From: an uncultured Candidatus Saccharibacteria bacterium
GTDB taxonomy: Bacteria; Patescibacteriota; Minisyncoccia; Phycocordibacterales; DATDWN01
Direction: 5' to 3'
DNA length: 64,000 nt
Assembly (NCBI GenBank): GCA_964468795.1
Contig: CAYXWL010000002.1
Location: 5,459-69,458 of the forward strand
The notes under the pieces were generated by a model. That model was not told where the DNA came from. It made no database searches and saw nothing but the letters and a program-made list of their open reading frames with translations. Below, one piece after another: positions 43,208 to 62,768 of the stretch (positions are counted from its first letter, which is position 1; every line of letters starts with the position of its first letter). A program made the translations under genes and the position numbers.

Positions 43208-43960
43208 ATGGAAGAGGTTGATCTAAGAAAATTTTTAGAAAAATACAGAGATAGTAGGGTTGATTTTTACCGTTTCCCGGGAAATTATGGAGATTCACTA
43301 ATCTGGCATGGTACAAAAATACTACTAAATAAACTTAATATCATTGAAGATTACGTTGAAATATCTTCTCAAAAAAAGAATAACGTACTATTTATAGACG
43401 GTGGAGGTAATTTTGTTGATTATTATTCAGATGTAAAAAATTTCTTAATTGAGAAAAAAGATTTGTACAAGGAAATAGTCATCTTACCTCATACTATTTT
43501 TGGTAATAAGCAGATTGATATTCTAAATAGTTTGTCTGGTGATATTACAGTGTTTTGTCGTGAAAAAACTTCTTTCAAATTTGTAAAGGAAAATTTTACC
43601 AAAGGGAATATTTTTTTATGGCATGATTGTGCTTTCTATAATTCTTTTCCAAAATCAACATCTGGAACTGGGGCGCTTAATGCTTTTCGATCAGATATGG
43701 AATCTACTCTTAATGAATTACCCCATACAAATGAAGACATATCATATAATGGATATGCTACAAAACCTCTTGATGAGTTCATTAATATATTAAATAAATA
43801 CGAGCAAGTTAATACAGACAGGTTGCATGTAGCCATATGCGCTACACTTCTTGGAAAGCAGGTAAAATTATTTCCAAATTCGTATTATAAAAACAAGGCA
43901 GTTTTTGATTATTCTTTAAAAAAATTCCCTAATATAATTTTTGTTGATAAAATATCCTAA
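43208..43960 (+). CDS. Polysaccharide pyruvyl transferase family protein.
   Basis: An N-terminal GNYGD motif and a C-terminal DRLH motif. Confidence 0.55.
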   Translation: MEEVDLRKFLEKYRDSRVDFYRFPGNYGDSLIWHGTKILLNKLNIIEDYVEISSQKKNNVLFIDGGGNFVDYYSDVKNFLIEKKDLYKEIVILPHTIFGNKQIDILNSLSGDITVFCREKTSFKFVKENFTKGNIFLWHDCAFYNSFPKSTSGTGALNAFRSDMESTLNELPHTNEDISYNGYATKPLDEFINILNKYEQVNTDRLHVAICATLLGKQVKLFPNSYYKNKAVFDYSLKKFPNIIFVDKIS

Positions 43961-45276
43961 ATACTTACTATTTTATTAGCTAAGGTGATCTTACTCCTTA
44001 TGCATGAAAGTAATTCTCTCTTCTCAATATTAGAAGCTTCTTTGAGTACATACTTTGCATAATTTCTGATATCTATATCTTTAACCTCGATTTTTTCTTT
44101 AGTTCCAAGAATGACTCTCTGGAATTTTTTCACTCTTTCTACTTCAGCTTTAATTTTTTCTTTTATACCTATCTCATTAAGATCAATTTTATCCATAAGT
44201 AATACAAATTGTTCAATCAAATCTTCCTCATTTATGTACCCAGACTTACAATGCTTATCTTTAAATTTTGTGCATCCATAATAAACATAACGATGTACAT
44301 TTCCATTCTTCTGTTTCTTAAACTTCTCGTCAGCAGTAATACCAGACCCACATAAACCACAAGTCATAAGTTTGGTAAAAGCAAACTCTTTATCTTCAAC
44401 TCGAATAACTTGTCCGTTTATCTGAGTTTGAACTTGATCAAATAATTCTTTGGTTATCAGAGGTTCGTGTATGCCTTTGTACCAAAGACCGCTTTTCTTC
44501 GGAAACTCAAAAGTTCCGTAATAAAAATCACTTTTTAAAATTAAATATATATTACTCAGTGTTAAGCCTTTATTTCCATTTGGAGTTTTAAAATTGAGTT
44601 CAAATTTCAGCCAATGGTATAGTTTCTTTCCTGTCCATTTCTCGTAAGCAACTTTCTCAAACATTTTTCTAATGATGTGGCCTCGTTCTGGATCAATGTA
44701 CACATGACCTTTACGATCAGCCCTCATTTCATTTAAATAGCCCATAGGGGCTGGTGCAGGCCATAGACCCATCTCACATCTAGTTCTCAGTCCACGCTTA
44801 ACATTGATACTTTTATTGTCGTTCTCAAGTTTTGCATGAGATCACAAAATCATGAGTAGAAACTTTTCGTTTGGTGAATTCTGGAATGACTGACCATAAG
44901 TTCTAATTTGATGTAGTTTCTTTTCGTCCATTAAATCCACAAGAGTTCCAAGGTCACCAGCATTTCTACTTAAACGGTCTGGTGCCCATGTCAAAATACC
45001 TGTGTATCTTCCAGAATTGAGATCACGGATAAGTTCATTAAACACAGGTCTTTGTCCTGATGCTTTGGCAGAATAAGATTCACGTCTAATATCAATTATT
45101 TCAAGATTTTCTCTTTCAGCGATTTGTAGCATTTCTTTTACTTGAGAATCAATTGAGAGCGCTTGTTTCTCGTCAGATTCAGTTGATTTTCTAGCATAAA
45201 GACAATATCTGACTTTATCTACTGGAACTGCATCTGGTGCCCATATTTGAGCCCCTCTGTTTATTACTGCTTCCAT
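43957..45276 (-). pseudogene. Large serine recombinase interrupted by one in-frame TGA at about 44842-44844, the position where the intact paralog has a conserved Cys. The ORF track shows it as 43957..44772 plus 44842..45276.
   Basis: The N-terminal resolvase domain carries YARKSTE (catalytic Ser). The C-terminal recombinase and zinc-ribbon domains are also present. The sequence is collinear with 57072..58394 across the stop. Confidence 0.75.
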
Positions 45277-45318
45277 ACCTATATTGATGACGCAATGGTT
45301 CTGGGAGTCAAGGAGATA

Positions 45319-45894
45319 TTAAGTATCTTTGTCCACATCTGGATCCATCATTTTATCAACCTCTCCCTCTTTCTCGGTATCGATTTTCCACTCTATATAT
45401 GAGGCATTAAATATATCTATTAGATTTTGTTCATCATTACAGAACACCTTAATAAATGGTTCAAATATTTGGTAAGCAATATCTGCCTCAAAGTTTTTCT
45501 CTAAATCGTAAATAATTGAAAACATAGTTTCAAAGTTGTGACCTTTCTTAACTGGTTTACTCACTATGTCAGAATCTCTAGTTAATAGAGAACTATAATG
45601 TTTACCTTTTTCTTTCTGCATATATCTAGAATCATTATGAGACAACCAAAAGGTTGCAGACTTATGTTCTCCTCTTTGAACTCCTTTTATAATTACAGTT
45701 TCAGCAGATCCATTAATTGCTTCTCGTCCAACAAATAAAGCCATGACAACTTTTTTGTTAAATGTTGGGTGTCGCATAATCCATCTATAGAATGTGCTGT
45801 GGTCTATTCCAACTTTATTACAGACATACCGAACATTAGGAATTACTTCCAATTCCTTAACAATTCTTTTGGTTATGTCATCTCCATATCGCAT
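45319..45894 (-). CDS. HTH protein, phage terminase small subunit-like.
   Basis: The N-terminal HTH (GIDHSTFYRWIMRHPTFNKK) is homologous to 61088..61537. Confidence 0.45.
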   Translation of the reverse strand: MRYGDDITKRIVKELEVIPNVRYVCNKVGIDHSTFYRWIMRHPTFNKKVVMALFVGREAINGSAETVIIKGVQRGEHKSATFWLSHNDSRYMQKEKGKHYSSLLTRDSDIVSKPVKKGHNFETMFSIIYDLEKNFEADIAYQIFEPFIKVFCNDEQNLIDIFNASYIEWKIDTEKEGEVDKMMDPDVDKDT

Positions 45895-45896
45895 GG

Positions 45897-46601
45897 TTAG
45901 TTTATCTTACGAGCTTTGTCGCCAGTAAACATTTCGTACCTTTTAATTATTAGATCTACAAAGACAGGATCGATTTCGACCATAAAACATTTTCTTTTTA
46001 GCTGGTGAGATGCAATTAGTTCTCCACCACTACCACCAAAAAGTGAGAGGATATTATCTCCAATTTTTGTACACCGTTTGATTGGCTTATCATGAAGAGT
46101 GATAGGTTTCTCTGTTGGGTGTTCGTATAGATTTCCGGATAATCTTCGAATAGCCCAAACATCAAACATTTCCATGTAGTTTTCAATCATCTCATTGCCT
46201 GTCCCAATATCTTTATTTAATACTTCATCATAATTTCTATGATGTGGAGAAAGATAAGGTTTTCCTTTTGTCCCATAAACACAGGGTTCATAGACTTTTG
46301 AAAATGCTACCTGTGGTGTGGGATTTGCTATTCCTTTTAACCAAATACAGATTCTCTTAAAATCAATACCGATTTCTTTATATATGGAAGCAATCAGTGG
46401 TGTATATGTTTGGTCGCAGTAATAGAAGAAGTGGGCACTGGTATTTGTAACCGAGAAGGCATTACTGATTGTTTTCTTCAGAAACTCCTCATAGTCTTTA
46501 TCGTTTTTATTATCAGTACTAGAACCACCATAGTTTTTAGTGCCACCAATACCGTTTTTGTAGGAAAGGTTAATATTGTAAATTGGGTCACAGTAAACCA
46601 T
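45897..46601 (-). CDS. Orphan DNA methyltransferase (beta-class N6A/N4C). It is an N-terminally truncated paralog of 61485..62768 and lacks the ParB-like domain.
   Basis: DPIYNI is motif IV (DPPY-like) and FGGSGG is the SAM motif. About 60% identity to its paralog. Confidence 0.7.
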   Translation of the reverse strand: MVYCDPIYNINLSYKNGIGGTKNYGGSSTDNKNDKDYEEFLKKTISNAFSVTNTSAHFFYYCDQTYTPLIASIYKEIGIDFKRICIWLKGIANPTPQVAFSKVYEPCVYGTKGKPYLSPHHRNYDEVLNKDIGTGNEMIENYMEMFDVWAIRRLSGNLYEHPTEKPITLHDKPIKRCTKIGDNILSLFGGSGGELIASHQLKRKCFMVEIDPVFVDLIIKRYEMFTGDKARKIN

Positions 46602-46603
46602 AT

Positions 46604-47880
46604 CAATTTTCTCCTTACCAACAACTTTCTCAAAGATAGTATCACTTGTAGAACAAGCACAAAAAGCTAAAGCTCCAACTCAAGAATTTATCGATAGTTT
46701 CGCAAAATATTACACACCATCAGTTGTTGTTATTGCTGCAATTATTGGTATAGGAATACCACTCCTTACTGGAGATGTATTCACTCTTTGGCTTGAGCGT
46801 GCAATAACACTTCTTGTTATTGCGTGTCCTTGTGCACTTGTTATCTCTACACCTGTAGCGATTACTTCAGCAATAGGTGGAGCATCAAAAAAAGGAATTC
46901 TAATGAAAGGAGGTAAGCATCTTGAAGAACTTAAAAATGTTCGGGTAATTGCTTTCGATAAAACTGGAACTTTAACTCTTGGAGAACCTTACATTTCTGA
47001 TGTTATTGCTTTTAATGGCTTTACTGAAAAGGATGTTCTTGAGGATGCTGCAGGTGTTGAACAATTTTCTTCTCACCCTCTATCTAAAAGTATATTAGCT
47101 TTTGCAAAAGAAAAAGGTATTAGTCCTCACACAATGCAAAATTATCAAAATATTTCTGGTAAAGGAGGAAAGGCGACCTGTATGGTATGTGACGATCTCG
47201 AACATTGTGTAGGTAATTTAAAACTTATGGATGCTCATGATATTTCAACTGAAGAAATACTTGAGAAAACAGAAAAATTTGAACGAGAAGGAAAAACGGT
47301 GGTTTTGGTAAGTGAAGACAAAAAAATAATGGGCGCATTGGCAATTTCAGATAGAATTCGCAATGAAGCCAAAGATACTATCAGTAAACTTAACTCTCTT
47401 GGGGTACAAACAGTAATGCTTACTGGAGATAACCAACATGCCGCTTCGTTTGTTGCAGAAAGTTTGGGAATTAAAGAAGTTTACGGATCACTTCTTCCAG
47501 ATGAAAAGGTTCAAAAAATTCAATTGCTTAAAGATAAGCATAATTCAGTGGCAATGGTTGGAGATGGTGTAAATGATGCTCCATCTTTGGCTCTATCAAA
47601 TGTTGGTATTGCCATGGGTGCAAGAGGATCAGATGTTGCGATTGAAACTGCGGATGTTGCTCTAATGAATGACAATATTTTGAACATTCCAGCAATGGTG
47701 GAGTTAAGCAAAAAGACAATAAAAACTGTTAAGCAGAATGTAACGGCAGCTCTTGTGGTAAAAGTTGCTTTTGTTGTCCTTGCAGTGTTCGGTATCTCCA
47801 ATCTTGGTATCGCAATTGCTGCCGACACCGGAGTGGCGATACTCGTTATCTTAAATGGATTAAGGCTATTTAAGGCCTAA
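46604..47880 (+). pseudogene. 5'-truncated heavy-metal P-type ATPase (ZntA/CadA-like), C-terminal two-thirds only.
   Basis: The in-frame translation from about 46604 contains CPC (IACPCAL), DKTGTLT, GDGVNDAP and a C-terminal ILNGLRL. The N-terminal HMA and TM1-4 are absent. The fragment abuts the truncated methyltransferase start. Confidence 0.7.
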
Positions 47881-47941: not shown

Positions 47942-49135
47942 ATGAAATCAATCATAATGGTTGGCCTGACAGGAATTCTTACATTTACCGGACTGGGAGT
48001 AGGCCTTATACAAGACAAAAATCAATCAACAACGCCAGAAAAAGTATCAGTAAAATCAGTCAGTGACTTACCGGAAGGCGTAGTAAAAGAATACAAAGTA
48101 GAGAAGGGCGATACATTCGCTGAGGTTATGCTTGCACAAGGCGTATCTTATAATGACATTAATGCTATTCTCGATTCTGCAAAAAACGTATTTGATTTTA
48201 CTACTGTTGGTGCTGGTAAAGTTCTAAAATTTGTTTTTGTGAACAAAGCTTTTGCTGCAATGGAATACCCACTTAACAGTGATACTGTGGTTCACGTAAA
48301 AAAAGAAGGAGATGGATTTAAGGTGGCTGAAGAGGATATTCAGTACGACATAACTCAAGTTACTGCTCAGGGTACTATTACTGACTCACTATTTATGTCC
48401 GCAAAAGATGCGGGTGTGGATGATAAGGTTATTTTAAAAATGGCAGAAGCCTTTTCGTGGGATATAGACTTTGCAACTGATATTCAGTCCGGTGATAGCT
48501 TTAAGGTTGTTTATGAAAAACGGTCATTTGACGGTAAGCCAGCTGGAGCTGGAAAACTTCTAGCAGCTGAGTTTACGAATAAAGGGAAAACTCAGACTCT
48601 GTATCGTTACGAAGATGCTTTTTATGATGAGAGTGGTAAGTCTGTGATGAGACAGTTCTTACGTTCTCCACTTAGTTATTCATATATTAGTTCGGGGTAT
48701 GAGGGTTCTAGAGTTAACCCTGTTACTAGAAAAGTTGAGGCTCACTTTGCTATAGATTATGCAGCTCCGTTAGGAACACCAATCGTTGCTTCTGCTAAGG
48801 GTACTGTTTCTTATGCTACTTCAAAAGGTGGACTTGGTATTACAGTCGAAATTAAACATGGAGGTTCTTATCTTACTCAATACGCACATATGTCTAGAAT
48901 TGCTAAGGGTATAAAAAATGGTGTTGAAGTTAATCAGGGTGACATAATCGGATACGTAGGATCAACTGGTGTTTCTAGCGGTCCTCATCTTCAATATGCG
49001 ATGTATAAGGGAAATACAAAAGTAAATCCGCTCAATGAAGAGTCTTCTAGAGAAATATCTATCGAGGAAAAAGATCGAGCTGACTTTGAGGGTACAACAA
49101 ATAAACTTAAGTTGGTGCTGGGCGCTAAAAATTAA
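47942..49135 (+). CDS. M23 family metallopeptidase with an N-terminal secretion anchor.
   Basis: HFAIDYAAPLGTP...GSTGVSSGPHLQY are the M23 HxxxD / HxH motifs. Confidence 0.8.
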   Translation: MKSIIMVGLTGILTFTGLGVGLIQDKNQSTTPEKVSVKSVSDLPEGVVKEYKVEKGDTFAEVMLAQGVSYNDINAILDSAKNVFDFTTVGAGKVLKFVFVNKAFAAMEYPLNSDTVVHVKKEGDGFKVAEEDIQYDITQVTAQGTITDSLFMSAKDAGVDDKVILKMAEAFSWDIDFATDIQSGDSFKVVYEKRSFDGKPAGAGKLLAAEFTNKGKTQTLYRYEDAFYDESGKSVMRQFLRSPLSYSYISSGYEGSRVNPVTRKVEAHFAIDYAAPLGTPIVASAKGTVSYATSKGGLGITVEIKHGGSYLTQYAHMSRIAKGIKNGVEVNQGDIIGYVGSTGVSSGPHLQYAMYKGNTKVNPLNEESSREISIEEKDRADFEGTTNKLKLVLGAKN

Positions 49136-49695: not shown

Positions 49696-50790
49696 ATGAA
49701 ATCTATCAAATTAGACATCCCTTTTCTTGTTTCAACAATTCTTCTATTTATAGTCGGTCTTCTTATCTTTTTCTCGGCTTCATTTGGTTTGCTTGCAAAA
49801 CAAAAGTTAAGTTACGGTGATATTGTTTTGAAACAACTAGTTATCGGAGGATGTATAGGAATGCTTGCTCTTCTTTTTACATCTCATTTTGATTATAGAA
49901 AATGGAGGAAATATGCTTTTTATCTCTTCCTTTTCGGGATTTTCTTAAACCTTATAGTTTTCATTCCTCAAATTGGCTATACCCACGGAGGAGCAACACG
50001 ATGGATATCTTTAGGGTCATTCACCTTTCAACCATCAGAGTTTTTAAGACTAGCTACTGTACTCTATTTTTCAGTCTGGCTAACTTCCGTAAAAAATAAA
50101 GTTAATACTTTTAATTACGGTTTTGTTCCTCTTTGTATAATCCTTGCAATTACAGAGGGGGTACTTCTTCTACAACACGATACTGATTTAGTTATTGCAG
50201 TTGCACTTATGGGAATGTTTATCGTTGCGGGAGGAAAAATTAAACATCTTTTACTTTTATTTTTCATACTTGCCATCAGTTTAACTGCTTTGGTTTATAC
50301 TCGCCCATATGTGAAAGACCGCCTGAATACATTTTTACATCCTGCAAGTAATCCTTTAGGTTCTGGTTACCAAATCCAACAATCATTGATTGCTATAGGT
50401 TCGGGAGGTTTTTCTGGGAGAGGTTTTGGTCAAAGTATCCAAAAGTTCAATGTATTACCTGAACCAATTGGAGACTCAATTTTTGCAGTAGCAGGAGAAG
50501 AGTTCGGGTTTATTGGAACTGTGAGTTTAATTTTACTATTTCTTGTTTTTGCAATGAGAGGACTAAAGATTGCTTCAAATAGCAAAGACTCGTTCGGTAC
50601 ACTACTTGGAACGGGAATTATCTTAATAATAATTGGGCAAGTCTTTACGAATATAGGAGCAATGGTAGGCATATTGCCTCTTACAGGAGTGCCACTTTTG
50701 TTCATAAGCCAAGGTGGAACTTCTCTCATTTTTGCTCTTGGAGCTACAGGAATTGTACTGAATATATCTAAACAACAGAAAATCAAATAG
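49696..50790 (+). CDS. SEDS family protein (FtsW/RodA).
   Basis: Ten TM segments with FtsW/RodA conserved motifs (GDSIFAV..EEFGFIG). Confidence 0.8.
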   Translation: MKSIKLDIPFLVSTILLFIVGLLIFFSASFGLLAKQKLSYGDIVLKQLVIGGCIGMLALLFTSHFDYRKWRKYAFYLFLFGIFLNLIVFIPQIGYTHGGATRWISLGSFTFQPSEFLRLATVLYFSVWLTSVKNKVNTFNYGFVPLCIILAITEGVLLLQHDTDLVIAVALMGMFIVAGGKIKHLLLLFFILAISLTALVYTRPYVKDRLNTFLHPASNPLGSGYQIQQSLIAIGSGGFSGRGFGQSIQKFNVLPEPIGDSIFAVAGEEFGFIGTVSLILLFLVFAMRGLKIASNSKDSFGTLLGTGIILIIIGQVFTNIGAMVGILPLTGVPLLFISQGGTSLIFALGATGIVLNISKQQKIK

Positions 50791-50795: not shown

Positions 50796-51284
50796 AAATC
50801 AATCACCAAACAAGTAACTCCTCATCATGCCATTGACTACACCACAAGTGCAGGAACTCCTGTTATTGCTACAGCAGATGGAAAAGTTACGCTGGCTGGA
50901 TCAAAAGGTGGACTTGGAATAACTGTAGAGTTAAAGCATGGAAGTTATCTCACTCAATATGCTCATCTTTCAAAAATTGCAAAGGATGTAAAGAATGGAG
51001 CCAGTATCTTGCAAGGAGACGTCATCGGATATGTGGGATCGACCGGCATCTCAACAGGACCTCATTTGCAGTATGTAATGTTTGAAAATGGAAATCCGAT
51101 AAATCCTCTTACCGCTGATTTTCCACGTGAGAATTCATTGTCTGATTCAGAAATCGACAATTTCACTACGACAAAAAAACAAACTCCAGGATATCTTGAA
51201 GTAAACAAAGTTTTACACATATCAAATTTGACTATATACCCCCCTAGGGGTATATTTGCTGTATATGAAATATATGGATATTAA
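50796..51284 (+). pseudogene. 5'-truncated M23 peptidase fragment, a paralog of 47942..49135.
   Basis: The translation in the frame of ORF 51009..51284, from 50796, gives HHAIDYTTSAGTPVIA...GSTGISTGPHLQY. About 70% identity to the M23 catalytic domain above. It begins 6 nt after the rodA stop. Confidence 0.5.
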
Positions 51285-55173: not shown

Positions 55174-55200
55174 ATTTATTAAAATAATAATATAAATAAT

Positions 55201-55422
55201 ATGAAAAAATCATCATTTATACATGCAGTTTCAATTGTAACAGCTATATGGGGAGCATTAGCTCTTATTGGTGCGTGGCTTGCGGGAGTTGATGGAACTA
55301 TATGGGGTTTTACCTATCAGCATTGCATCAATGACGCAATTATTCTAATGCTCATTTCAATTTCAGCTGGTATATGTGCAATGTACCGTTATCAGTTAGA
55401 GAAAGATAATATCTCAAAATAA
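55201..55422 (+). CDS. Small membrane protein.
   Basis: Two TM segments. Confidence 0.35.
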   Translation: MKKSSFIHAVSIVTAIWGALALIGAWLAGVDGTIWGFTYQHCINDAIILMLISISAGICAMYRYQLEKDNISK

Positions 55423-55423
55423 A

Positions 55424-55615
55424 ATGGAAGAAAATTCACAAAATACTTTCTCAAAAAGGACGTGGACTATAATTTTGGTCATAGGACTTATAGGATTAGT
55501 CCTACTTTTGAGAAATCACACATCACATTTACTCATAGCTTTGCCTTACATTGTTTTATTGGCATGTCCACTTATGCATATTTTTATGCATGGAGGACAT
55601 GAACATGGTAAGTAA
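55424..55615 (+). CDS. Small membrane protein with a His-rich C-terminus (DUF2933-like).
   Basis: MHIFMHGGHEHGK tail. Confidence 0.4.
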   Translation: MEENSQNTFSKRTWTIILVIGLIGLVLLLRNHTSHLLIALPYIVLLACPLMHIFMHGGHEHGK

Positions 55616-55633
55616 AATAATCTCGTAAATATT

Positions 55634-56653
55634 ATGACAACTCAAACACAGAAGTATACCTTTCATGTGTCTGGCACTCACTGTCCATCATGTAAAATCT
55701 TCATCGAGGATACTCTAAATGAACAGATTGGTATCCAGCAAACATATGTTGACTTAAAACATGAGACTGTTTCAGTTGAGACTATTCTTGATGAGAACAA
55801 GCACAGACTCGCAGAAATATTAACTGAGAAAATAAGACATAATGGCTATTTTCTATCTGTCGACAAGAGAACTAAAGAGAAAAAAGATAATGGGATTATC
55901 TGGCAGGCATTACCCATTGGACTTGTATTTCTTGCTCTGTTCTTTATTATCCAAAAATCAGGAATACTGAATTTTGGATTAGGTGGGACGGTAACTCCAG
56001 TAACCAGTTTCATTATTGGTTTAATCGCATCAGTTTCTAGCTGTCTTGCAGTAGTTGGAGGACTTGTTCTTTCTCTCTCTGCAACAGTATCTCAAGATAA
56101 AATTAGTGATGTAAAACCGATGATGCTTTTCCATGGGGGGCGTCTTATCAGTTTTGCTGTGCTTGGGGGTGTGCTTGGTTCGATTGGCAGTGCAATAGGT
56201 ATAAGTTTTACAGTCACGGCAATACTTGGGATCATAGCATCAGTTGTGATGATAGTGCTAGGGCTTAATTTGGTGGGAGTATTTGATAAAAATATGATCT
56301 CTCTACCCTCAGGAGTTTTCAACTTCTTCCGCAGAGTAGAGCATAAGACGATAGCTCCATTCTTAGTGGGTGTCGGTACATTTTTCTTGCCTTGTGGTTT
56401 CACTCAAGCAATGCAAGTAGCGTCACTTTCAAGCGGTTCGTTTATTTCTGGACTCTTGATCATGGGAGCATTTGCCCTTGGAACGTTTCCAATGCTTGCA
56501 TTGTTATCATTTGGTTCAGCATCCTTCTCACAATCAAGACATGCTCCACTCTTCTTCAAATCAGCAGGTATTTTGGTGATTGGCCTCGGAGTCTTCGCAC
56601 TTCTGGCAGGACTTGCTGGTCTGGGTATTATTGAACCATTATTTAATATATAA
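55634..56653 (+). CDS. HMA domain fused to a TauE/SafE-type (sulfite exporter family) membrane protein.
   Basis: The N-terminus carries GTHCPSC (CxxC HMA). The C-terminal part is polytopic with Gly-rich TM helices. Confidence 0.6.
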   Translation: MTTQTQKYTFHVSGTHCPSCKIFIEDTLNEQIGIQQTYVDLKHETVSVETILDENKHRLAEILTEKIRHNGYFLSVDKRTKEKKDNGIIWQALPIGLVFLALFFIIQKSGILNFGLGGTVTPVTSFIIGLIASVSSCLAVVGGLVLSLSATVSQDKISDVKPMMLFHGGRLISFAVLGGVLGSIGSAIGISFTVTAILGIIASVVMIVLGLNLVGVFDKNMISLPSGVFNFFRRVEHKTIAPFLVGVGTFFLPCGFTQAMQVASLSSGSFISGLLIMGAFALGTFPMLALLSFGSASFSQSRHAPLFFKSAGILVIGLGVFALLAGLAGLGIIEPLFNI

Positions 56654-56669
56654 TTTTACAAATCAATCT

Positions 56670-57071
56670 ATGCAAAAAAATACAATCATATCTATTATCA
56701 TCAGCATTTCTCTCATCGGGGCCACACTTTATTTCATTTCTGACAAATCTGCTCCGACAGACACAAACGAATTTGCACAGTCACAAAATGTTGAAATAAG
56801 AGACGGCGTGCAGTATGTGACTGTAACTGCAAAGGGTGGTTACTCTCCTCGCATTACGCAAATAAAGGGTGGTATTCCGACAAAACTAGTAGTGAAGACT
56901 GATGGTACATATGATTGTACAGCTTCTCTCACTATTCGATCAGTTGGATTTCAAAAGGTATTACAGCCAACAGGAGAGGAAACCATTGATTTAGGCACTC
57001 CAAAATCAGGCGAAAAAGTACAAGGGGTATGCGGTATGGGGATGTATAATTTTCAGATTAAAGTAAGTTAG
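56670..57071 (+). CDS. Secreted cupredoxin-like domain protein. The ORF is listed from 56580; the start was chosen at MQKNTII.
   Basis: Signal anchor plus a beta-rich ~100 aa region with a C-terminal GVCGMGMYNFQIKV. Confidence 0.4.
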   Translation: MQKNTIISIIISISLIGATLYFISDKSAPTDTNEFAQSQNVEIRDGVQYVTVTAKGGYSPRITQIKGGIPTKLVVKTDGTYDCTASLTIRSVGFQKVLQPTGEETIDLGTPKSGEKVQGVCGMGMYNFQIKVS

Positions 57072-58394
57072 TTATTCGAGCGTTATCTTTTTATCCTTTA
57101 ATGTAATCTTATTCCTCAAACACCCCAACAACTCTCTCTTCTCTCCATCAGTTCCATTTCTTAGGATGTATTTACAATAGTTACGGATATCAATATCACC
57201 AACTTCAATCTTGTCTTTTGAATTGAGTACTATCTGATTAAACTTTTTAAATCTCTGTACTTCGTTTTTGATTTTCTCCTTTATTCCTATCTCATCTATA
57301 TTGATTGTCTCCATCAATTCTTCAAATTGTTTAATCAAATCTATTTCGTTAATATATCCACCTTTGCAATTCCTATCTTTGGATCCATTACAGCCATAAT
57401 ATACATGTCTATTAATACTCCCATCTTTTAATTTTTTGAATTTCTCATCTGGAGTAATACCAGAAGAACATAGTCCACAAATCATCAACTTAGTAAAAGC
57501 AAATTCTTTGTTCTCAGTCCGTATTACAGATCTCTTCATCTGTTCCTGTACTTGATCAAATAATTCTTTAGTAATAAGTGCTTCATGTTTCCCTCTATAC
57601 CAATTACCCGAATCTTTAGGATATTCAAAAGTTCCATAGTAGAAGTGATTTTGTAGGATCATATACACATTACTCAAAGTTAAGTTTTTGTTTCCACTTG
57701 CTGTCTTAAGATTTAAATCAAATTTAAGCCAGTTGTATAGTTTTCTCCCACTCCACTTTTCATATGCTACTTTTTCAAACATTTTCCTAATAATAGGTGC
57801 TCTCTGTTTGTCGGTATATATCACTCCTTTCTCTCCAACATTTTTACTGTTCAAGTACCCAGTCGGAGCGACAGACGGCCATAATCCCATCTCAACTCTA
57901 GTTTTCAATCCACGTTTTACGTTTATACTTTTGTTGTCATTTTCTAACTTGGCTTGGCTACAAAGTATCATTAGTAAAAACTTCTCGTTAGGTGAATTAT
58001 GAAAATGTTGTCCGTATGTACGAATTTCAAGTAATTGTTTCTCATCCATCAAGTCTACTAGTGATCCTAAGTCTCCCGCATTCCTGCTCAATCTATCAGG
58101 AGCCCACGTCAGTATTCCATTAAATCTTTTTCTTCTAATATCTTCCAGTAGTTCCTTAAACACAGGTCTTTGACCTGAATCCTTAGCGGAGTGAGATTCT
58201 CGACGAATATCAATTATTTCTAAATTTTCTCTTTCAGCGATATTAAGCATTTCCTTTACCTGGCTATCAATACTTAGTGCTTGCTTCTCATCTGATTCAG
58301 TTGATTTTCTAGCATACAAACAATATTTAATTTTAATTGTTGGTAAGATTATTTCTTTTCCTATTAGTCCTGTCGATTGTATATGTATTTCCAT
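57072..58394 (-). CDS. Large serine recombinase (intact).
   Basis: Resolvase domain (YARKSTE), recombinase domain and a C-terminal zinc ribbon (CGLCSS...YYGC). Length is 440 aa. Confidence 0.85.
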   Translation of the reverse strand: MEIHIQSTGLIGKEIILPTIKIKYCLYARKSTESDEKQALSIDSQVKEMLNIAERENLEIIDIRRESHSAKDSGQRPVFKELLEDIRRKRFNGILTWAPDRLSRNAGDLGSLVDLMDEKQLLEIRTYGQHFHNSPNEKFLLMILCSQAKLENDNKSINVKRGLKTRVEMGLWPSVAPTGYLNSKNVGEKGVIYTDKQRAPIIRKMFEKVAYEKWSGRKLYNWLKFDLNLKTASGNKNLTLSNVYMILQNHFYYGTFEYPKDSGNWYRGKHEALITKELFDQVQEQMKRSVIRTENKEFAFTKLMICGLCSSGITPDEKFKKLKDGSINRHVYYGCNGSKDRNCKGGYINEIDLIKQFEELMETINIDEIGIKEKIKNEVQRFKKFNQIVLNSKDKIEVGDIDIRNYCKYILRNGTDGEKRELLGCLRNKITLKDKKITLE

Positions 58395-58424
58395 ATATAT
58401 ATTAATGACAGAACCAACAACTCT

Positions 58425-58436
58425 GCATAGCTATGC
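58425..58436. other. 12-bp perfect palindrome gcatagctatgc, 30 nt upstream of the recombinase start. It is a candidate operator or att core.
   Basis: Direct reading of the sequence. Confidence 0.3.
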
Positions 58437-58587
58437 AAAACTACCGATTCGTCGCATACTCGCATTAGGTCTTAGCAAAATAACTAACCTGCGATACGAT
58501 TGGAATTAGAGAACAAAATAGAGTATCATGTTCTTAACAATTTAATAGATAGCCTAACCCCTTGTATTCCAAGGATATGGCTAAAAT

Positions 58588-58629
58588 CCGTTCAAAGTAG
58601 AAAGCTCTTCGTCAGAGCACTTTGAACGG
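58588..58629. repeat. Nested inverted repeat ccgttcaaagt...gctct-tcgtc-agagc...actttgaacgg. Further direct copies of ccgttcaaag lie at 58588 and 58707.
   Basis: Direct reading of the sequence. Confidence 0.6.
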
Positions 58630-58719
58630 TCCCTCTGGGAAACTGGAGGTGGGTGTCGCAAGACATCGCTGGCGGAGAGCTTTGTGCTATCTGCTAATTA
58701 ACAAAACCGTTCAAAGATT

Positions 58720-59568
58720 ATGGAAAATATAAACCAGTCTTCTGAGGTGAAGACTAAAAACATCACCTTATCATCTGTTTTAAAATGGATTTTTGGAGTT
58801 ATCTTTACTATGGTAGGAGTAACTTCAATTTTTTCAGACTTTCTTCCAGGGATATCATTTCTAGTTATTGGGCTCATTTTTCTTCCGCCATTTAATAAGT
58901 TCCTGAAAAATAAATTTAATTTTGTTTTGAGTCGTAACGTAAAAATAGGAATTGTCAGTATTTTAGTTGTCCTAGCTGGGGCGACAATGGATACCAAACC
59001 AAAAGATGTATCGGAAACGACTCCAAATGTTACAAATTCTCAAAAAGAATCAAACACGGTAACATCTCCAGTAGTGGCTGAAGTAAAACCAAAAACTCTT
59101 GAAGAGAGAATAAGCGGGATCATAAATTCTTCACTCGGGGCACAAACAAATACAAGTAAACCACGTCTAATAAGTGTTGAAGTAAGTAAATACACACCAT
59201 CAATGCTTTCGGATTATGGATATAAGTCCTCTGATGATGTTTCAAGTATTTTTATCATAATAAATGCCGACGAAAATATAACAACCAATCTTCAGAAGAG
59301 TACCCTGAACAAAGAAGCGTTTGAATTGGCAAAAGCAGTATTTCCGATCGATCACACTATCGCGGACTTGATTATTTGGGAACAACTTCCAGTACAGGAT
59401 AAGTATGGAAATATAAAAGATGGCACAGCAATAGTTTATGGAATTTCTCGTCCATTGTTTTCTAAAATCAATCTAGATAATTTCTTCTATAACGACCTGC
59501 CTAATCTTCTGAGATCGGAGATTAGGAATGATGATCGAAATAGTTACTTTGAGAAAATCACGTTTTAA
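58720..59568 (+). CDS. Membrane hypothetical protein (phage-region cargo).
   Basis: Two N-terminal TM segments and an S/T-rich extracellular region. Confidence 0.45.
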   Translation: MENINQSSEVKTKNITLSSVLKWIFGVIFTMVGVTSIFSDFLPGISFLVIGLIFLPPFNKFLKNKFNFVLSRNVKIGIVSILVVLAGATMDTKPKDVSETTPNVTNSQKESNTVTSPVVAEVKPKTLEERISGIINSSLGAQTNTSKPRLISVEVSKYTPSMLSDYGYKSSDDVSSIFIIINADENITTNLQKSTLNKEAFELAKAVFPIDHTIADLIIWEQLPVQDKYGNIKDGTAIVYGISRPLFSKINLDNFFYNDLPNLLRSEIRNDDRNSYFEKITF

Positions 59569-59575
59569 TTATTCA

Positions 59576-61095
59576 CTATTTATTACTAGGCATAGTTTTC
59601 TCAACATCCACATAATCTGAATGATAAATAGTGTCATCATCGTTATCATTTCCTCCCAACCAAAACATTATGATAGTACCTTCATTTGAGTGCTTATTAA
59701 GTGTTGAATTAATAAGTAATGAAAAAGCGTCTGCGAGGTCGTCGTGTTTCTCCACTCCAAAACCAACGAGTTGCTCAATGAGTTGTTCACATCCATGTCT
59801 GGGAAACTTTATCATCCCAGATTTTATTGACTCGATGTTAGAGATAATCTTGTCCGTTTATCACCCTTAGGTTTTACAGCTTCCGCTTCAATACCGTTGA
59901 ATTCTAACATCTGTGGTAAAGCTTCTTGATAAGCGACACTTTCTACAAATAATGTATCGCTACTAAGTGGCATTTGAGTATTTTTAAAGTTCTTCATTAA
60001 TTCCACTTGAGCCGGAAAGTTTAATTTTTGAACAATCGGATTTGGTAGAATGTAGATTCGCATTTTTTCGCATCGGCTGTAGACGTGAGCTGAGACAATT
60101 GCTGTAAAGTCTGCGGAGTCTTTTTCTGATATAGCCAAGTCAGCTCCGGCATAGGTTCCACGATACGCTTTGTGATTTATTCCTGGTAGTTCGTCATAGA
60201 ACTGAATCCACTCAGGATATATTACCTGATCATCACTTGGAATGATTCTAAGTAAGTACTCTCTTTGCCATGACACCTCACTGGCAACTTTCAACTTTTC
60301 TTCCTCTACATCTTTTTCCGTTGGATATTTTCCGCGCCATAAACAAACATTTTCGTTATCAAGTAGCGGATATTGTTTAAATACTCCTTTTGATCGATCA
60401 TTTTCTATATCTTCTTTAATTCTCATGAGAAGAGAATCTTCATGCAAAAGGTTTCCAACAATAATGAGTCTAGTCTTACGATCTCCAGCAGGTATAACTT
60501 CACCATAGAGCCATTGGTATGTTTTATTTCGTCCTTCACGAGTTTTTGTTGATTGCACATCTTCAATATCGTCACAAATAATTAAATCTGGACGGTGTTC
60601 GTTGTGTCTGATACCACGAATACTCTGTTCGGTTGAAGCGACTGTGATTCTTGCCCCACTTTTATTAAACACAAGAGAATAAGACCCCCACTCGTCGCTT
60701 TGCTCCTGAAATGGCCCGAGGTCTTTTTTCAGAAGTTCATTATTTTCAAGTTCTGTACGGATATTCATCATGTGTTGTTTTGCTTGTGTCCGTGTCTGAC
60801 AGAAAATCACACAAAATTTCTTTTGTTGTTTTCCTAAAATTGCCCAGATTGGATATGCAGTGGTAACCATTGTTGATTTTCCGGAACCACGAAAGGCTAC
60901 CACGTACATATTTTCAGTTGAACTTTTTTCTAGATTATGAATAATCTCTTTTTGGAAATCAGCGGTTTCATATTTCACATAATGGGCATAATAGAAATGA
61001 AAGAAATATAAGAAACTATCTTTTGTAATTGATGTTCTAACCAACTTGTCTTTCATCATTCTATTCACCAACTTGCCATCAATAATTTTAGTCAT
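59576..61095 (-). pseudogene. Phage terminase large subunit, split by a frameshift near 59816-59840 into 59824..61095 (ATPase and nuclease N-terminal part) and 59576..59815 (C-terminal HDD nuclease motif).
   Basis: Walker A VAFRGSGKST and Walker B-like LIICDDIED. The downstream ORF carries the terminal EKHDDLADAF motif in another frame. In its own frame, upstream of its Met, that ORF continues ...ISNIESIKSG into the first ORF. Confidence 0.65.
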
Positions 61096-61537
61096 GTTTT
61101 TTATTTATGTTTCTTATGGATTTTGATTTGGTCAGAGATGCAAGTTTGAGAGCTTGTTTTACAATTTTGGCTTGACCAGGTGTCAGTTCTTCAGATTCTT
61201 CTTTTGTGGTGATTTCAATTTTGTCTTTGTAGTTGGCGTTTCTATGACGAAGCCAGAAGCTGATTGCTGGCCAGTTTTTCTCCTTAATCATCGTAAGTAG
61301 TTGGCTTTCACTCATATCATTTACTAAAGCTACACCATTAGCAAAAGCCTCATCCATTTTCTTTGAAAAGATAGGATCCTCTTTCTTCCAACGGTATACA
61401 CTATTTCTGGAAAGTCCTGTTTTTTCACAAGCCACCTGGACTATGGGTACTTTCGCAAGCTCTGCCAGAAATTGATCCTGAAATTTATTCTTTTTCATAG
61501 TGTTCAATGAATGCTTTGTTACCTGTAAAAGCTTCAT
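61088..61537 (-). CDS. Terminase small subunit-like HTH protein.
   Basis: HTH (GLSRNSVYRWKKEDPIFSKK). It lies immediately upstream of, and overlaps, the large terminase subunit. Confidence 0.5.
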   Translation of the reverse strand: MKLLQVTKHSLNTMKKNKFQDQFLAELAKVPIVQVACEKTGLSRNSVYRWKKEDPIFSKKMDEAFANGVALVNDMSESQLLTMIKEKNWPAISFWLRHRNANYKDKIEITTKEESEELTPGQAKIVKQALKLASLTKSKSIRNINKKHD

Positions 61538-62768
61538 ATCTTTTTATAATGAGATCACAAAATCTCGGTTCTAATTCGCACCCATATATACGTCGACCTA
61601 GCTGTTCGCCTGCGAGTAAGGTACTACCTGATCCAAGGAAACTGTCCAGAATTATGTCGTTCGGCTTAGTACATCGTTTTATCGCTTTTTCGTGTAAGGT
61701 TATCGGTTTAGAAGTAGCATGTTCGTAGTCTTTGGCTGAGAGGCGTTTTGCTGTCCATATTTCTATAAATTCATCAACTTGTGAGACAAGATCATTACCC
61801 GTGCCAAATTCTTTATTCATCACTTCATTGAGATCCATAATTGATTCGGCAAGATATGGTTTTCCGCGGACACCATATACCGCAGGCTCATATGCTTTAT
61901 TGCAGTACACTTTCGGCACAGGATTTTGTGAATTTTTTAACCACAGACACACTCGCTTGTTGCTTATACCCAGCGCTCTGTATACATCCTGAATTAATCC
62001 GATATAAATTTGATCACAGTAGTAGAAGATGTGAGTATCTACATGTGATACAGCTAGTGCTGAAATGAGACTATTCTTAATGAAAAGTTTATATTCTTCA
62101 AAAGTGCGTGAGTCATTTACATTTCCTCCATAATTTTTGTTTCCACCAATACCACCGTCATAATCTATCTTGATGTTATACACTGGATCTGAATAGATCA
62201 TGGACACCTTTTCATTTCCAAGTAGTCGTTTCAAATTTTCCTCACTGGTCGAGTCTCCACAAATAATTTTGTGATTACCGAGATGGATAATATCACCGAG
62301 CTTAGTTTTTGGTTCAGTAATTTTTTTGAGTTCCTTCTCAATATCAAAGGAATCATTTTTTGTCTCATTGTCCTCATCCCAAAACTTTGCAAGCTCAATA
62401 CTGTCGAACCCAGCAAAAGACAGAGTCTCCATATCAAACGATTTCAGTAAATCATAATCCCAGTCACCACCGAGCTTGTTTGATCCAATGAGATATTCTC
62501 TGGATTCTTTTTCTGTAAGTTTTCTATTTGGTACTCTAATATCAATCAATTCATTACCTCGACCAAGTAACTGCAGAGCTTTTATTCTTTGGTGACCCGC
62601 AAGAATTTTTCCATCATGATCTATCGCTGGTATCTCCACAAGATTAAACTTCCTCAAACTTCTCGTTAAATTAGACATTTGTTTGTCACTGATTTTGCGA
62701 GGATTGACCTCTTGGGGGATAAGGTCATCTACACGTTTTTGGACCGTCGTCCATGAAAGCTTTTTCAT
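61485..62768 (-). CDS. ParB-like nuclease domain fused to a DNA methyltransferase (phage orphan MTase).
   Basis: The N-terminus has a ParB/Srx-like region (AGHQRIKAL). The C-terminus carries DPVYNI and FLGSGS methyltransferase motifs. Confidence 0.75.
   Translation of the reverse strand: MKKLSWTTVQKRVDDLIPQEVNPRKISDKQMSNLTRSLRKFNLVEIPAIDHDGKILAGHQRIKALQLLGRGNELIDIRVPNRKLTEKESREYLIGSNKLGGDWDYDLLKSFDMETLSFAGFDSIELAKFWDEDNETKNDSFDIEKELKKITEPKTKLGDIIHLGNHKIICGDSTSEENLKRLLGNEKVSMIYSDPVYNIKIDYDGGIGGNKNYGGNVNDSRTFEEYKLFIKNSLISALAVSHVDTHIFYYCDQIYIGLIQDVYRALGISNKRVCLWLKNSQNPVPKVYCNKAYEPAVYGVRGKPYLAESIMDLNEVMNKEFGTGNDLVSQVDEFIEIWTAKRLSAKDYEHATSKPITLHEKAIKRCTKPNDIILDSFLGSGSTLLAGEQLGRRIYGCELEPRFCDLIIKRYEAFTGNKAFIEHYEKE

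Follow-up and report, generated by a model that had tools for sequence, protein, structure and literature searches.

Two Colinear Large Serine Recombinase Modules Beside a tRNA-Gln Gene Are Probably Neighboring Copies of One Kind of Mobile Island That Is Common Across Patescibacteria

The DNA under study, termed here the window, is a 64,000-nucleotide stretch of a chromosome from the Patescibacteria (candidate-phyla-radiation, CPR). Two gene modules, A (43957-46664) and B (57072-62768), each centered on a large serine recombinase (LSR), lie downstream of a tRNA-Gln gene and are accompanied by metal-resistance and cell-wall genes. The features of the region are given below; L-numbers are labels of the related loci and contigs with which it was compared.

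36367-36440, plus strand: tRNA-Gln(UUG) (ARAGORN and Rfam)
36441-36590, plus strand: tRNA-side att half-site GCTTGAGATAGTTTCGGACTCCGAGGAGGGTCG (36441-36473), then a conserved trailer with a terminator-like hairpin
36610-43960, plus strand: candidate cargo arm of element A (Pfam, composition, and position as in the family architecture)
43957-45276, minus strand: large serine recombinase A (Pfam PF00239, PF07508 and PF13408; one-frame translation)
45319-45894, minus strand: TerS-like helix-turn-helix (HTH) protein of the compact (A) subtype (weak Sf6_terminase and HTH_Tnp_1 matches in Pfam)
45897-46664, minus strand: methyltransferase A (PF01555 positions 3-220 of 221), 5' third with the ParB-like domain deleted
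46612-46664, no strand: deletion junction that joins element A and the B cargo arm, where two divergent genes lack their 5' parts
46612-47880, plus strand: Zn/Cd-type P1B ATPase, 3' fragment (PF00702)
47942-49135, plus strand: M23 peptidase with Csd3 N2 domain, cargo (Pfam)
49696-50790, plus strand: RodA/FtsW family protein, cargo (PF01098, E 6e-91)
50802-51200, plus strand: second M23 peptidase, C-terminal 133-aa fragment (homology to M23 of other loci)
51256-57071, plus strand: copper block (Pfam)
57072-58394, minus strand: large serine recombinase B, intact, 440 aa (Pfam; phrog_95 integrase, E 5e-61)
58551-58667, plus strand: LOOT RNA, RF03000 (Rfam 79.6 bits against a gathering score of 46.4, full-length 1-121)
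58720-59568, plus strand: variable membrane-anchored protein of 282 aa, LOOT-led (position homologues in L036, L037 and L032)
59576-61095, minus strand: terminase large subunit (TerL), split (phrog_38, E 1e-66)
61088-61537, minus strand: TerS-like protein B, terminase small subunit (phrog_4044, E 2e-9)
61485-62768, minus strand: intact N4/N6 DNA methyltransferase with a fused ParB-like domain (PF01555)
62934-63347, minus strand: orf137, conserved 137-aa protein, first in the methyltransferase operon (same position in 18 loci)
63407-64024, plus strand: LexA-like S24 repressor, transcribed away from the operon (full-length protein of L083: PF00717 and PF01726)

A preliminary description of this DNA had viewed the two modules as alike in gene order and orientation, and the genes and order that it gave were confirmed with Pfam and PHROGs. 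The modules are colinear, with recombinases that are 70% identical, methyltransferases that are 50% identical at the protein level (A against residues 190-419 of B, E 1e-88) and TerS-like proteins that are 28% identical (E 2e-14). The nucleotide similarity for which a dot-plot had been advised was detected by blastn as a colinear, ungapped match of 69.7% over 1246 nt (E 1.5e-148), well above what chance would give. Both recombinases possess the PF07508 and PF13408 domains and the motif LYARKSTESD, along with the resolvase domain PF00239 (Pfam E 5.8e-16 for A and 3.5e-20 for B). The closest solved structure to recombinase B is that of the SPbeta YokA LSR (E 2e-12), with a sequence match over residues 24-362. 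This recombinase has >8000 homologues, the best 120 of which are all at least 73% identical. Methyltransferase B matched phrog_498 (E 8e-83) and the ParB-like phrog_620 (E 2e-23).

Several of these genes had been described as damaged. The decay in the present genome is modest and partly polymorphic. Recombinase A is interrupted by a lone in-frame TGA at 44842-44844, at a codon that is TGT (Cys) in B and in homologues, but it is not frameshifted. The gene is intact (439 aa) in assemblies L100 and L101 from the same population (99.98% identical), and the stop codon is a strain polymorphism. Methyltransferase A is missing its ParB-like N-terminal ~168 residues, with homology to the L044 enzyme stopping at residue ~169, but its PF01555 catalytic domain is whole. 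The frameshift in terL of module B is real: alignment to the intact genes of L077, L080 and L082 placed a 1-nt deletion near position 59824, and the identical lesion is present in four independent assemblies (L083-L086). The intact TerL of L077 matched phrog_38 with E 1.5e-78. Module A does indeed lack terL and the hypothetical gene, but this absence, together with that of LOOT, is native to a compact subtype rather than a product of decay. terL-less relatives of this compact subtype are L044, L058, L066, L035 and L069, and TerS-like protein A is 85% identical to that of L044.

The right-hand part of module B leads into orf137, for which 42 homologues were found, none of them annotated, and whose AlphaFold model (pLDDT 79.6) yielded no fold match in the PDB. 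The adjacent LexA-like gene had been taken to be partial. It is complete in the genome (205 aa), is cut by the window end at 64000 alone, and holds an equal position in 16 loci. The capsid or portal genes that were to be sought beyond 64 kb were not in evidence, as the 8.7 kb past the window end contain no structural phage genes.

The LOOT motif is recorded as Rfam RF03000 (Weinberg et al., 2017; PMC5737381), and the available part of that publication gives no function or genomic context for it. The copy described here is located 52 nt upstream of the ORF for the 282-aa protein, which has no match in Pfam. Of the related loci, 42 contain LOOT RNA, and almost every copy precedes a variable ORF that runs in the same direction; the motif scored 72-88 bits in eight further loci. 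Different genes occupy the LOOT-led slot in other loci. LOOT RNA is a component of the LSR islands, and its placement 50-85 nt upstream of the variable ORF suggests a 5' leader and not a free-standing small RNA.

The genes between the modules had been interpreted as metal-resistance cargo bracketed by A and B. Instead, they form the LSR-proximal cargo arm of B, and the same synteny recurs beside both recombinase subtypes: in 13 loci the LSR stop codon adjoins either the copper block or an M23 gene. The copper block comprises genes for CsoR, CopA, orf206, DUF305, two small membrane ORFs, HMA-DsbD_2 and a cupredoxin-like protein, and it also abuts the recombinase stop codon in L008, L044, L045, L007 and L074. 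As in CsoR-CopA operons, the gene for CsoR (PF02583, E 4e-26) neighbors that of an HMA-containing P1B copper ATPase. This ATPase (774 aa) has a CxxC HMA motif at the N-terminus, and the identical gene of L085 was assigned HMA, E1-E2_ATPase and Hydrolase domains by Pfam. In L001, L004, L006, L009 and L077 it is an M23 gene that borders the recombinase stop codon, and a RodA/FtsW gene is present in the equivalent arm of L006 and L008. The Zn/Cd ATPase and the second M23 gene are truncated as first described. The ATPase fragment is homologous from 46612, being 76-79% identical to the L004 and L006 ATPases (643-646 aa) from residue ~224 onward, and the M23 fragment is 75-80% identical to M23 proteins of L001, L004, L006 and L007 but only 56% identical to the other M23 protein in the window. 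Defense candidates in the present island are PDC-M48A/B and PDC-S16, whereas relatives carry CBASS and Shedu domains (L002 and L001) and, in further loci, reverse transcriptases, type III restriction-modification and PDC-S11.

The candidate arm of element A contains two NUDIX genes and genes for glycosyltransferases, DUF5672, a methyltransferase and a polysaccharide pyruvyl transferase, with a GC content of 0.28-0.33. A NUDIX pair also follows the attP-like junction in L004. This cluster is probably the cargo arm of A, an assignment that is uncertain because the close relative L044 has NUDIX/glycosyltransferase genes across tRNA-Gln.

A search for flanking repeats revealed att-like sequences on both sides of the region. 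The 3' end of tRNA-Gln, CCAGCCA (36434-36440), is proposed as the attL core and the left island boundary. The trailer that follows is conserved in L044 and L097-L099, with similarity lost directly after the hairpin; contig L102, from an independent assembly, terminates at 36437 inside the att core, and GC content falls past 36 kb. The distance from Dus-holB to tRNA-Gln is 2.3-4.4 kb in L097 and L064 compared to 32 kb here. Among 70 related loci, 35 have a tRNA with its 3' end facing the LSR, 1-10 kb downstream and always on the minus strand (Gln 17, Ser 12, Trp 5, Asn 1). The hairpin/core motif is within 55 nt of 28 of these 35 tRNAs, but of none of 19 other tRNAs. At the opposite side, a block TCACTTTTGT[CA]ACTTTT... 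is situated upstream of the LSR in 45 of 85 loci, and downstream once only, in a tandem array. The terminal bases of the block agree with the tRNA type in all 16 cases (Gln 6/6, Ser/Trp 10/10). In the present genome the distal block is at 65803-65925 (extended coordinates) with a perfect 17-mer, and ends with CCAGCA at 65920-65925. The locus has, as tRNA-associated islands do, a boundary tRNA and a far-end repeat of its 3' end. The attP-like junction of L004, GCTCGAGTCGGC-CA-GCCAAGTCGAGC, is palindromic at 19 of 26 positions. Identity of the end cores is not higher inside one locus (0.62) than between loci (0.59). No empty site or circular junction was recovered, and a pattern search of JGI metagenomes gave 0 matches. 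Integration at tRNA 3' ends is well supported.

The LSR is 66-97% identical in 80 species-representative Patescibacteria loci, in ~40 of which the genes for methyltransferase (MTase), TerS, TerL and LSR are colinear in that order, with terL-less versions recurring. The order ParB-methyltransferase, TerS, (TerL), LSR, without a portal, capsid or replicase gene, is found in ~45 of 86 related loci. Clustering of 88 loci recovered the LSR in 86, MTase in 56, TerS in 55, TerL in 44, orf137 in 18 and LexA in 16; among the shared families there was none for portal, capsid, tail or replicase proteins. Elements range from 2.5 to about 30 kb, and nine minimal ones comprise no more than the block, the LSR, a single gene and the tRNA. 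Overall there are at least 368 confirmed stretches with relatives, in several hundred species-level genomes at minimum. Relatives of TerL in IMG/VR belong to elements of like kind only, and TerL is at most 31% identical to TerL proteins of cultured phages. In L001 and L004, for example, the LSR is 95% identical and TerL only 48%. As the identities of the LSR and the MTase-TerS-TerL genes are uncoupled, the two parts reassort.

The two colinear modules are probably neighboring copies of one kind of mobile island, adjoining the tRNA-Gln gene, that is previously undescribed yet very common across Patescibacteria. From the tRNA outward, the family layout starts at the tRNA 3' end and its att core, followed by a cargo arm of variable content; the LSR gene, which runs convergently to that arm; an optional cassette of LOOT RNA and variable ORF; an optional TerL; TerS and the ParB-methyltransferase; an optional orf137 with the divergent LexA-like repressor; a second cargo arm in which anti-phage genes are frequent; and a constant terminal block of ~125 nt whose last bases repeat the tRNA acceptor end. 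In the tRNA-proximal position, element A is the compact, terL-less subtype, whereas element B is the full subtype, with the metal-resistance and cell-wall block as its cargo arm. The unit is accordingly larger than the two modules as first delimited: it is a composite genomic island of ~29.5 kb, from 36441, with tRNA-Gln on the left, to ~65925, where the att block on the right is outside the window and the final 1.9 kb extend past its end. A deletion at 46612-46664 eliminated the far end of A along with the att junction between the elements and the first part of the B arm; the finding of no second distal att block within the window counts as support for this junction. Loci L042 and L073 provide precedents for tandem elements. 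The architecture, boundaries and lesions of the island are observed here, and they bear out the earlier view of tandem integrative elements with cargo that show erosion. That this CPR chromosome harbors a single composite island at the tRNA-Gln 3' end, built from two tandem LSR-family elements, is held with good confidence. Element B, or the entire composite, may still be mobile.

The LSR would recombine a dyad-symmetric attP with the tRNA 3' end. The LexA-like protein would hold the methyltransferase-TerS-TerL operon off until DNA damage or infection, upon which TerS and TerL would package the excised island into capsids of a helper phage, with the methyltransferase protecting the DNA. The LSR, LexA-like protein, TerS and TerL provide the integrase, repressor and packaging genes expected of a phage satellite in a setting devoid of virion and lysis genes: no structural gene families were present in the 88 loci or in the 8.7 kb past the window end. 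A replication module (primase or replication initiator plus origin), another hallmark of satellites, was not among the shared clusters of these loci. Neither a helper phage nor replication genes nor a pac/cos site was found for the island, and TerL is absent in many members and broken here. The phage-satellite lifestyle is what we infer from these genes, and the packaging step is plausible although we lean slightly against it. The broader proposal is more tentative still, and rather doubtful as a whole: that these are undescribed, phylum-wide, self-integrating satellite-like islands with an LSR that would be retargetable through an attP core fitted to each tRNA type, packaged into helper capsids by their own module, in which a LOOT leader controls a swappable surface or exclusion gene.

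Alternatively, the LSR and att sites might constitute a self-sufficient minimal element, and MTase-TerS-TerL-LexA a distinct module with no role in packaging, such as a domesticated unit or one directed against phages, that only travels within larger versions or acts as a favored landing pad; any movement would then be due to LSR excision and an unrelated transfer route. The minimal elements with an LSR and one gene, the uncoupled LSR and TerL identities, the LexA-adjacent arm full of defense candidates and the lack of a known helper phage agree with this scheme. Nevertheless, the MTase-TerS-TerL module without exception lies between the att boundaries and keeps a single orientation with respect to the LSR, the TerL of most members is an ATPase-nuclease homologue of full length, and none of TerS, TerL, orf137 and LexA is recognized as a defense protein by PADLOC, which makes the scheme improbable. 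It is very improbable that the modules are what is left of two once-complete temperate phages that lost their structural, lysis and replication genes independently. TerL, TerS, the ParB-methyltransferase, the LexA-like repressor and the serine integrase are typical phage genes, and terL is frameshifted and several genes truncated. However, no portal, major capsid, tail or lysis genes were present in the window, its extension or the related loci, and the compact order without structural genes recurs in dozens of species (~45 species-level genomes and IMG/VR contigs), a convergence on one architecture that is not expected of independent decay. Moreover, the att-bounded units of 2.5-18 kb have constant termini, and the LSR is under purifying selection, as judged from 95% protein versus 85% nucleotide identity. 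Finally, that A and B arose by duplication within this genome, as a composite transposon-like unit bracketing the metal genes, is scarcely credible even though they agree in gene order and direction and their recombinase genes are 70% identical in nucleotides, because each has much closer relatives in other genomes (A to L044, 80-91% nucleotide identity; B to L008, 82-93%), the TerS-like proteins are only 28% identical, A is a distinct terL-less subtype, and the copper block is tied to a single recombinase in many genomes. Modules A and B are instead different subtypes of a Patescibacteria-wide LSR element family, neither duplicates nor decayed prophages.

The islands share with known LSR elements and prophages (SPbeta SprA/YokA, TP901-1 Int, Tn5397 TndX, Tn4451 TnpX, SCCmec Ccr) the three-domain recombinase, composed of a resolvase catalytic domain with a YxRxS(T) serine motif, a recombinase domain and a zinc ribbon. 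Likewise, the recombinase gene is close to one end, and the candidate att site would resemble theirs in being dyad-symmetric with few shared bases. Habitually, tRNA 3' ends are the target of tyrosine integrases, whereas LSRs usually select protein-coding genes. The islands differ from known LSR elements in targeting tRNA 3' ends with an att core that matches the tRNA type and in having a cargo arm between the recombinase and the att site, and their LSR is only ~26-28% identical to those of cultured phages. Like phage satellites (SaPI/PICI, capsid-forming PICI, P4-like), they are integrated islands of small size (7-18 kb) that encode an integrase and a repressor as well as a small terminase of their own, lack virion and lysis genes, and have hotspots occupied by defense genes; a large terminase is often present. 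Unlike satellites, they employ a serine and not a tyrosine recombinase, have Patescibacteria as host range and depend on a helper only putatively, and no primase/replication module or capsid-remodeling genes were found in them. P4-type islands and tycheposons, which use tyrosine integrases, are likewise inserted at the 3' end of a tRNA gene whose terminal sequence is repeated at the opposite boundary, and they too accrete in tandem, deviate in composition and carry adaptive genes; the islands differ from these in recombinase family and in a tRNA repeat of ~6-7 nt versus tens of nucleotides.

To our knowledge, almost nothing is known of gene exchange among CPR bacteria, and we know of no conjugation systems in Patescibacteria. 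The islands are a defined mobile unit with recognizable ends and a conserved recombinase, and across elements their cargo covers resistance to copper and zinc, enzymes of the cell wall, glycosylation and numerous defense systems. The orphan LOOT motif acquires a concrete, testable genomic context. A serine recombinase lineage that acts on tRNA 3' ends and whose att cores change in step with the target is relevant to the study of recombinase specificity, and it might serve as a genetic tool in organisms for which none is available at present. If the islands are satellite-like, they would be a main route of horizontal transfer in Patescibacteria, including that of metal resistance and anti-phage defense.

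Open reading frame (ORF) mapping and domain scans bore out the gene inventory that the preliminary description gave for modules A and B, each of which encodes a large serine recombinase, a TerS-like protein and a DNA methyltransferase.

Genes of modules A and B and of the interval between them (ORF map and domain scans, unless stated)
43957-45276, minus strand: large serine recombinase A
45319-45894, minus strand: HTH/TerS-like protein A, 191 aa
45897-46664, minus strand: methyltransferase A fragment
Between the modules (domain scans): ATPase fragment, M23 peptidase, RodA/FtsW, M23 fragment, CsoR-CopA-DUF305-HMA/DsbD-cupredoxin block
57072-58394, minus strand: large serine recombinase B, 440 aa
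58720-59568, plus strand: 282-aa ORF of module B (ORF map)
59576-61095, minus strand: TerL B, spread over two frames
61088-61537, minus strand: TerS-like protein B
61485-62768, minus strand: ParB-domain N4/N6 methyltransferase B

The two modules are related, as had been proposed. The recombinase genes aligned without gaps across 1246 nt with 69.7% nucleotide identity (E 1.5e-148), and the methyltransferases and TerS-like proteins were 50% and 28% (E 2e-14) identical, respectively. They are not duplicates of each other. A recombinase gene 80-91% identical at the nucleotide level to that of A was found in L044, a locus of Parcubacteria C7867-006, and one that is 82-93% identical to that of B was found in L008, another related locus. 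As closer recombinases reside in these separate loci, A and B are independent acquisitions. The outline of the first interpretation stands, in that the modules are integrative elements in tandem that carry cargo and are partly eroded. It erred on duplication, on an origin from prophages and on how far the unit extends.

The recombinase has >8000 database relatives. The best 120 all were at least 73% identical, and the named hosts among these 120 were Parcubacteria, Paceibacterota and other Patescibacteria. In species-representative genomes, at least 368 relatives were confirmed by a scan, and 80 loci were fetched. When the window proteins were mapped onto the fetched loci, the order methyltransferase > TerS > TerL > recombinase was colinear in ~40. 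Two layouts without terL also recurred, one of which possesses an A-type TerS-like protein (L044, L058, L066, L035, and L069), and the compactness of A therefore is native and not the outcome of decay. Clustering of ORFs from 88 loci placed the recombinase in 86, the methyltransferase in 56, TerS in 55, TerL in 44, orf137 in 18 and a LexA-like protein in 16, and produced no common portal, capsid, tail or replicase family. The compact layout of a subtype and the lack of a shared structural family in the 88 loci argue against the proposal that the modules are prophage remnants. Contigs labeled viral in IMG/VR with the closest TerL had the same layout as the family, and TerL proteins and recombinases of cultured phages were at most ~31% identical. 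Among close relatives the recombinase was 94-97% identical as protein but only ~85% as DNA, which indicates purifying selection.

Nine minimal elements of 2.5-3.6 kb (L046, L048, L051, L054, L055, L060, L072, L075, and L081) each consist of a constant terminal sequence termed the block, the recombinase gene, one variable unrelated gene and tRNA-Trp or tRNA-Ser. The existence of these elements denotes the recombinase and its sites as the autonomous mobility core to which methyltransferase, TerS, TerL and LexA are accessory. Tandem arrays with an internal block were present in L042 and L073. Five elements are on short contigs in bins outside the Patescibacteria (L012, labeled Woesearchaeota, and L020, L035, L065, and L076, labeled Chitinophagaceae, Gammaproteobacteria or Flavobacteriaceae), for which mis-binning is likelier than a wider host range. 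The searchable literature contained nothing relevant on serine recombinase islands of CPR bacteria and the family appears to be undescribed there. It is grouped here with known kinds of element, namely serine recombinase islands and satellite-like elements.

One boundary of the elements is a tRNA gene. In 35 of 70 loci scanned, the recombinase had a tRNA 1-10 kb downstream of it (Gln in 17, Ser in 12, Trp in five, and Asn in one), invariably encoded on the opposite strand and with its 3′ end pointing toward the recombinase. Recombinase A and tRNA-Gln (36367-36440) have the same arrangement in the window. A hairpin and a C[AT]CGAG core directly 3′ of the tRNA accompanied 28 of the 35 recombinase-facing tRNAs, but 0 of 19 tRNAs elsewhere in these loci. 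A long direct repeat of the 3′ half of tRNA-Gln was discarded as a candidate, as BLAST detected none >11 nt. Instead, the flanking repeat, a tRNA end copied at the block, is only ~6-7 nt long and was located by family comparison.

Further features were noted near the tRNA. Conservation of the ~150 nt after tRNA-Gln (36441-36590), which hold a terminator-like hairpin and a GC-rich hairpin region, was 84-90% in L044 and L097-L099. A small RNA may be encoded there, or the stretch may be the inner end that is constant in the compact subtype. Similarity in the tRNA-Gln trailer ends just past the hairpin and is followed by NUDIX, CsoR or S51 peptidase genes, depending on the locus. In L040, L055, L060, and L072 a perfect inverted copy follows the tRNA-side core, e.g., AGCTAGCACGAGATGTGTTGT TACAACACATCTCGTGCTAGCT in L072, which creates a long palindrome beside the tRNA. 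Three independent assemblies break in or at the end of tRNA-Gln: L102 at 36437, inside the att core, and L103 and L105 at 36412. An assembly-graph branch at the att site, caused by island-free or differently occupied cells, would give such breaks.

The block marks the opposite end of the element. It opens TCACTTTTGT[CA]ACTTTT, is ~125 nt long and is on the same strand as the tRNA. In 45 of 85 loci it preceded the recombinase, and only once, within a tandem array, was it downstream. The block end copies the acceptor end of the tRNA at the opposite boundary: all 6 Gln loci read (C/G)AGC(C)A, and all 10 Ser/Trp loci read CCGC(C)A. Where it directly abuts the hairpin site (L004, L045, L049, and L046) the two form an imperfect palindrome, which in L004 matches at 19 of 26 positions around CA. 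This is the expected appearance of a serine integrase attP, and the junction is a predicted site of this type. The identity of end cores was 0.62 within loci versus 0.59 between loci, an uninformative comparison. No other DNA of the family is as conserved as the block (GTGTCACTTTTGTCACTTTTT ... GC[AT]CGAGAYRCGTCG ... CTTACAGGGCTTG ... GGTTCTAAC[AT]CGAG ... tRNA-like end), which matched no Rfam family and also is found at L001 ~2950-3075 and L077 ~1240-1362, among others. As it is ~118 nt upstream of the recombinase start in minimal elements, it may also contain a promoter or operator for this gene. A retron-like tie to a neighboring reverse transcriptase was rejected as the adjoining gene differs in nearly every locus.

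The window was extended at its right edge by ~8.8 kb with L083, a contig that is identical to it. The extension carries, in order, the complete LexA-like gene, DUF2188, PDC-M48A/PDC-M48B, histidine phosphatase and small ORFs, holB, dus, and folD. The extension contains no structural phage genes, such as the capsid or portal genes that were to be looked for past 64 kb. DUF2188 (PADLOC PDC-S16), PDC-M48A (E 2e-58) and the MBL-fold PDC-M48B (E 4.5e-39), at L083 7017-8740 (extended 64029-65752) directly after the LexA-like gene, are candidate anti-phage systems. A perfect copy of the 17-mer of the block occurs at 65803 and the block (extended 65803-65925; L083 6844-6966, minus strand) finishes GGTCGCCAGCA at 65925, just past the PDC-M48B gene, with the conserved histidine phosphatase following. 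The window itself has no other copy of the block. The limits of the island, 36441-65925, therefore were drawn from the tRNA-Gln end and this sole block copy. The unit reaches past the window edge and exceeds the extent first assigned to it, and the internal A/B junction has been lost in a deletion. The island reading fits both the distance of dus-holB from tRNA-Gln, which is 2.3-4.4 kb in L097 and L064 versus 32 kb in the window, and the drop in GC content at 36 kb from ~0.39 to 0.28-0.38. The end of L102, a contig of another sample, within the att core agrees with it as well. A search of JGI metagenomes with the empty-site pattern gave 0 matches, a rescan with the trailer returned three contigs with no clear empty site, and exact lookup of the right-flank His_Phos_1 protein for island-free contigs did not find an identical protein. 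The island-free site is predicted to read ...GAGTCCCTGTCCCCCAGCAATAAAGATATTTTATAAAT and the circle junction of the excised island ...GGTTCTAGCTCGAGGTCGCCAGCCAGCTTGAGATAGTTTCGGACTCC.

In 13 loci, which include both recombinase subtypes, a copper block or M23 peptidase gene was 0-10 nt from the recombinase stop codon. The cargo arm of B on the recombinase-proximal side therefore is made up of the genes for metal resistance and the cell wall at 46.6-57.07 kb. The 3′-terminal ~60 nt of the recombinase gene vary in concert with the adjoining cargo. The arm looks to have accreted as ATPase′-M23, RodA-M23′ and the copper block; no recombinase remnants were found in the 49.1-49.7 kb gap. The NUDIX/glycosyltransferase cluster is, by position, the arm of A. 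This assignment is less certain as L044 carries these genes on the other side of tRNA-Gln, although a NUDIX pair directly after the attP-like junction in L004 favors it. The NUDIX-NUDIX-glycosyltransferase clusters of the two genomes (L044 16411-20698 versus window 36367-38903; 70-91% identical) are on opposite sides of tRNA-Gln, implying rearrangement around the att site, possibly by the recombinase. Other arms in the family include CBASS and Shedu domains, reverse transcriptases, type III restriction-modification systems, and PDC-S11. As a separate observation, all 35 long ORFs in the housekeeping part of the window (1-36260) stop at TAA (26) or TAG (9), whereas at least four island genes (36600-64000) stop at TGA, which suggests that the host genome strongly avoids TGA and that the island genes are foreign.

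The elements also carry a structured RNA. Between recombinase B and the 282-aa ORF, Rfam identified a full-length LOOT RNA (RF03000) at 58551-58667 on the plus strand (79.6 bits versus a gathering score of 46.4). Profile searches located LOOT in 42 related loci, e.g., L001 9727-9839, L002 9724-9851, L044 7697-7812, and L077 9731-9848, and the Rfam model confirmed eight. The RNA was placed divergently upstream of the recombinase, downstream of the recombinase, or, in the compact subtype, upstream of the methyltransferase; minimal elements lack it. In nearly all cases a same-strand ORF begins 50-85 nt downstream. As this ORF differs by locus, usually specifying a small membrane-anchored protein, LOOT is suggested to be the 5′ leader of a swappable cassette. 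The searchable literature yielded no published function for LOOT.

Recombinase A is a single reading frame with one TGA where recombinase B has TGT. The same population is represented by two other assemblies that are 99.98% identical and have TGT and an intact 439-aa recombinase A, so the TGA is polymorphic among strains or, conceivably, the window record is wrong here. The changes TGT>TGA and CAA>CAT, 6 nt apart (window 44836-44844 versus L100 721-727), set the window apart from the two assemblies; either the gene was knocked out very recently or the sequence is locally in error. An alternative genetic code was ruled out by the TGT codon in the other assemblies and by ATGA start/stop overlaps in the island, which establish TGA as a true stop in this region. 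Methyltransferase A has a complete PF01555 domain but is missing the ParB-like first ~168 residues, and homology of the ATPase fragment begins at residue ~224 of 646-aa homologues. The deletion junction is at 46612-46664, where these divergent, 5′-truncated genes come together. TerL has a 1-nt deletion compared to three intact homologues, and four independent assemblies, each 100% identical to the window, share the lesion. The second M23 copy is a 133-aa C-terminal fragment with 75-80% identity to M23 of other elements and 56% to the full copy in the window.

The gene content accommodates a phage satellite in which the LexA-like protein would repress the divergent orf137-methyltransferase-TerS-TerL operon, the terminase of the island would package excised DNA into capsids of a helper phage, and the methyltransferase would protect the packaged DNA. 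The packaging step is tentative and we lean slightly against it. TerL is optional across the family and broken in this genome, no replication module or pac site was found, and a search for a helper phage by TerL retrieved only elements of the same kind from IMG/VR, with cultured phages at ≤31% identity, each of which counts against packaging. In contrast, there is good support that the serine recombinase integrates site-specifically at the 3′ ends of tRNAs, that elements accrete in tandem, and that cargo is exchanged beside the recombinase gene. Recombinase B, TerS, methyltransferase B and the LexA-like gene all are intact here, recombinase A is intact in some strains, and B, or the composite as a whole, may still excise in this genome.
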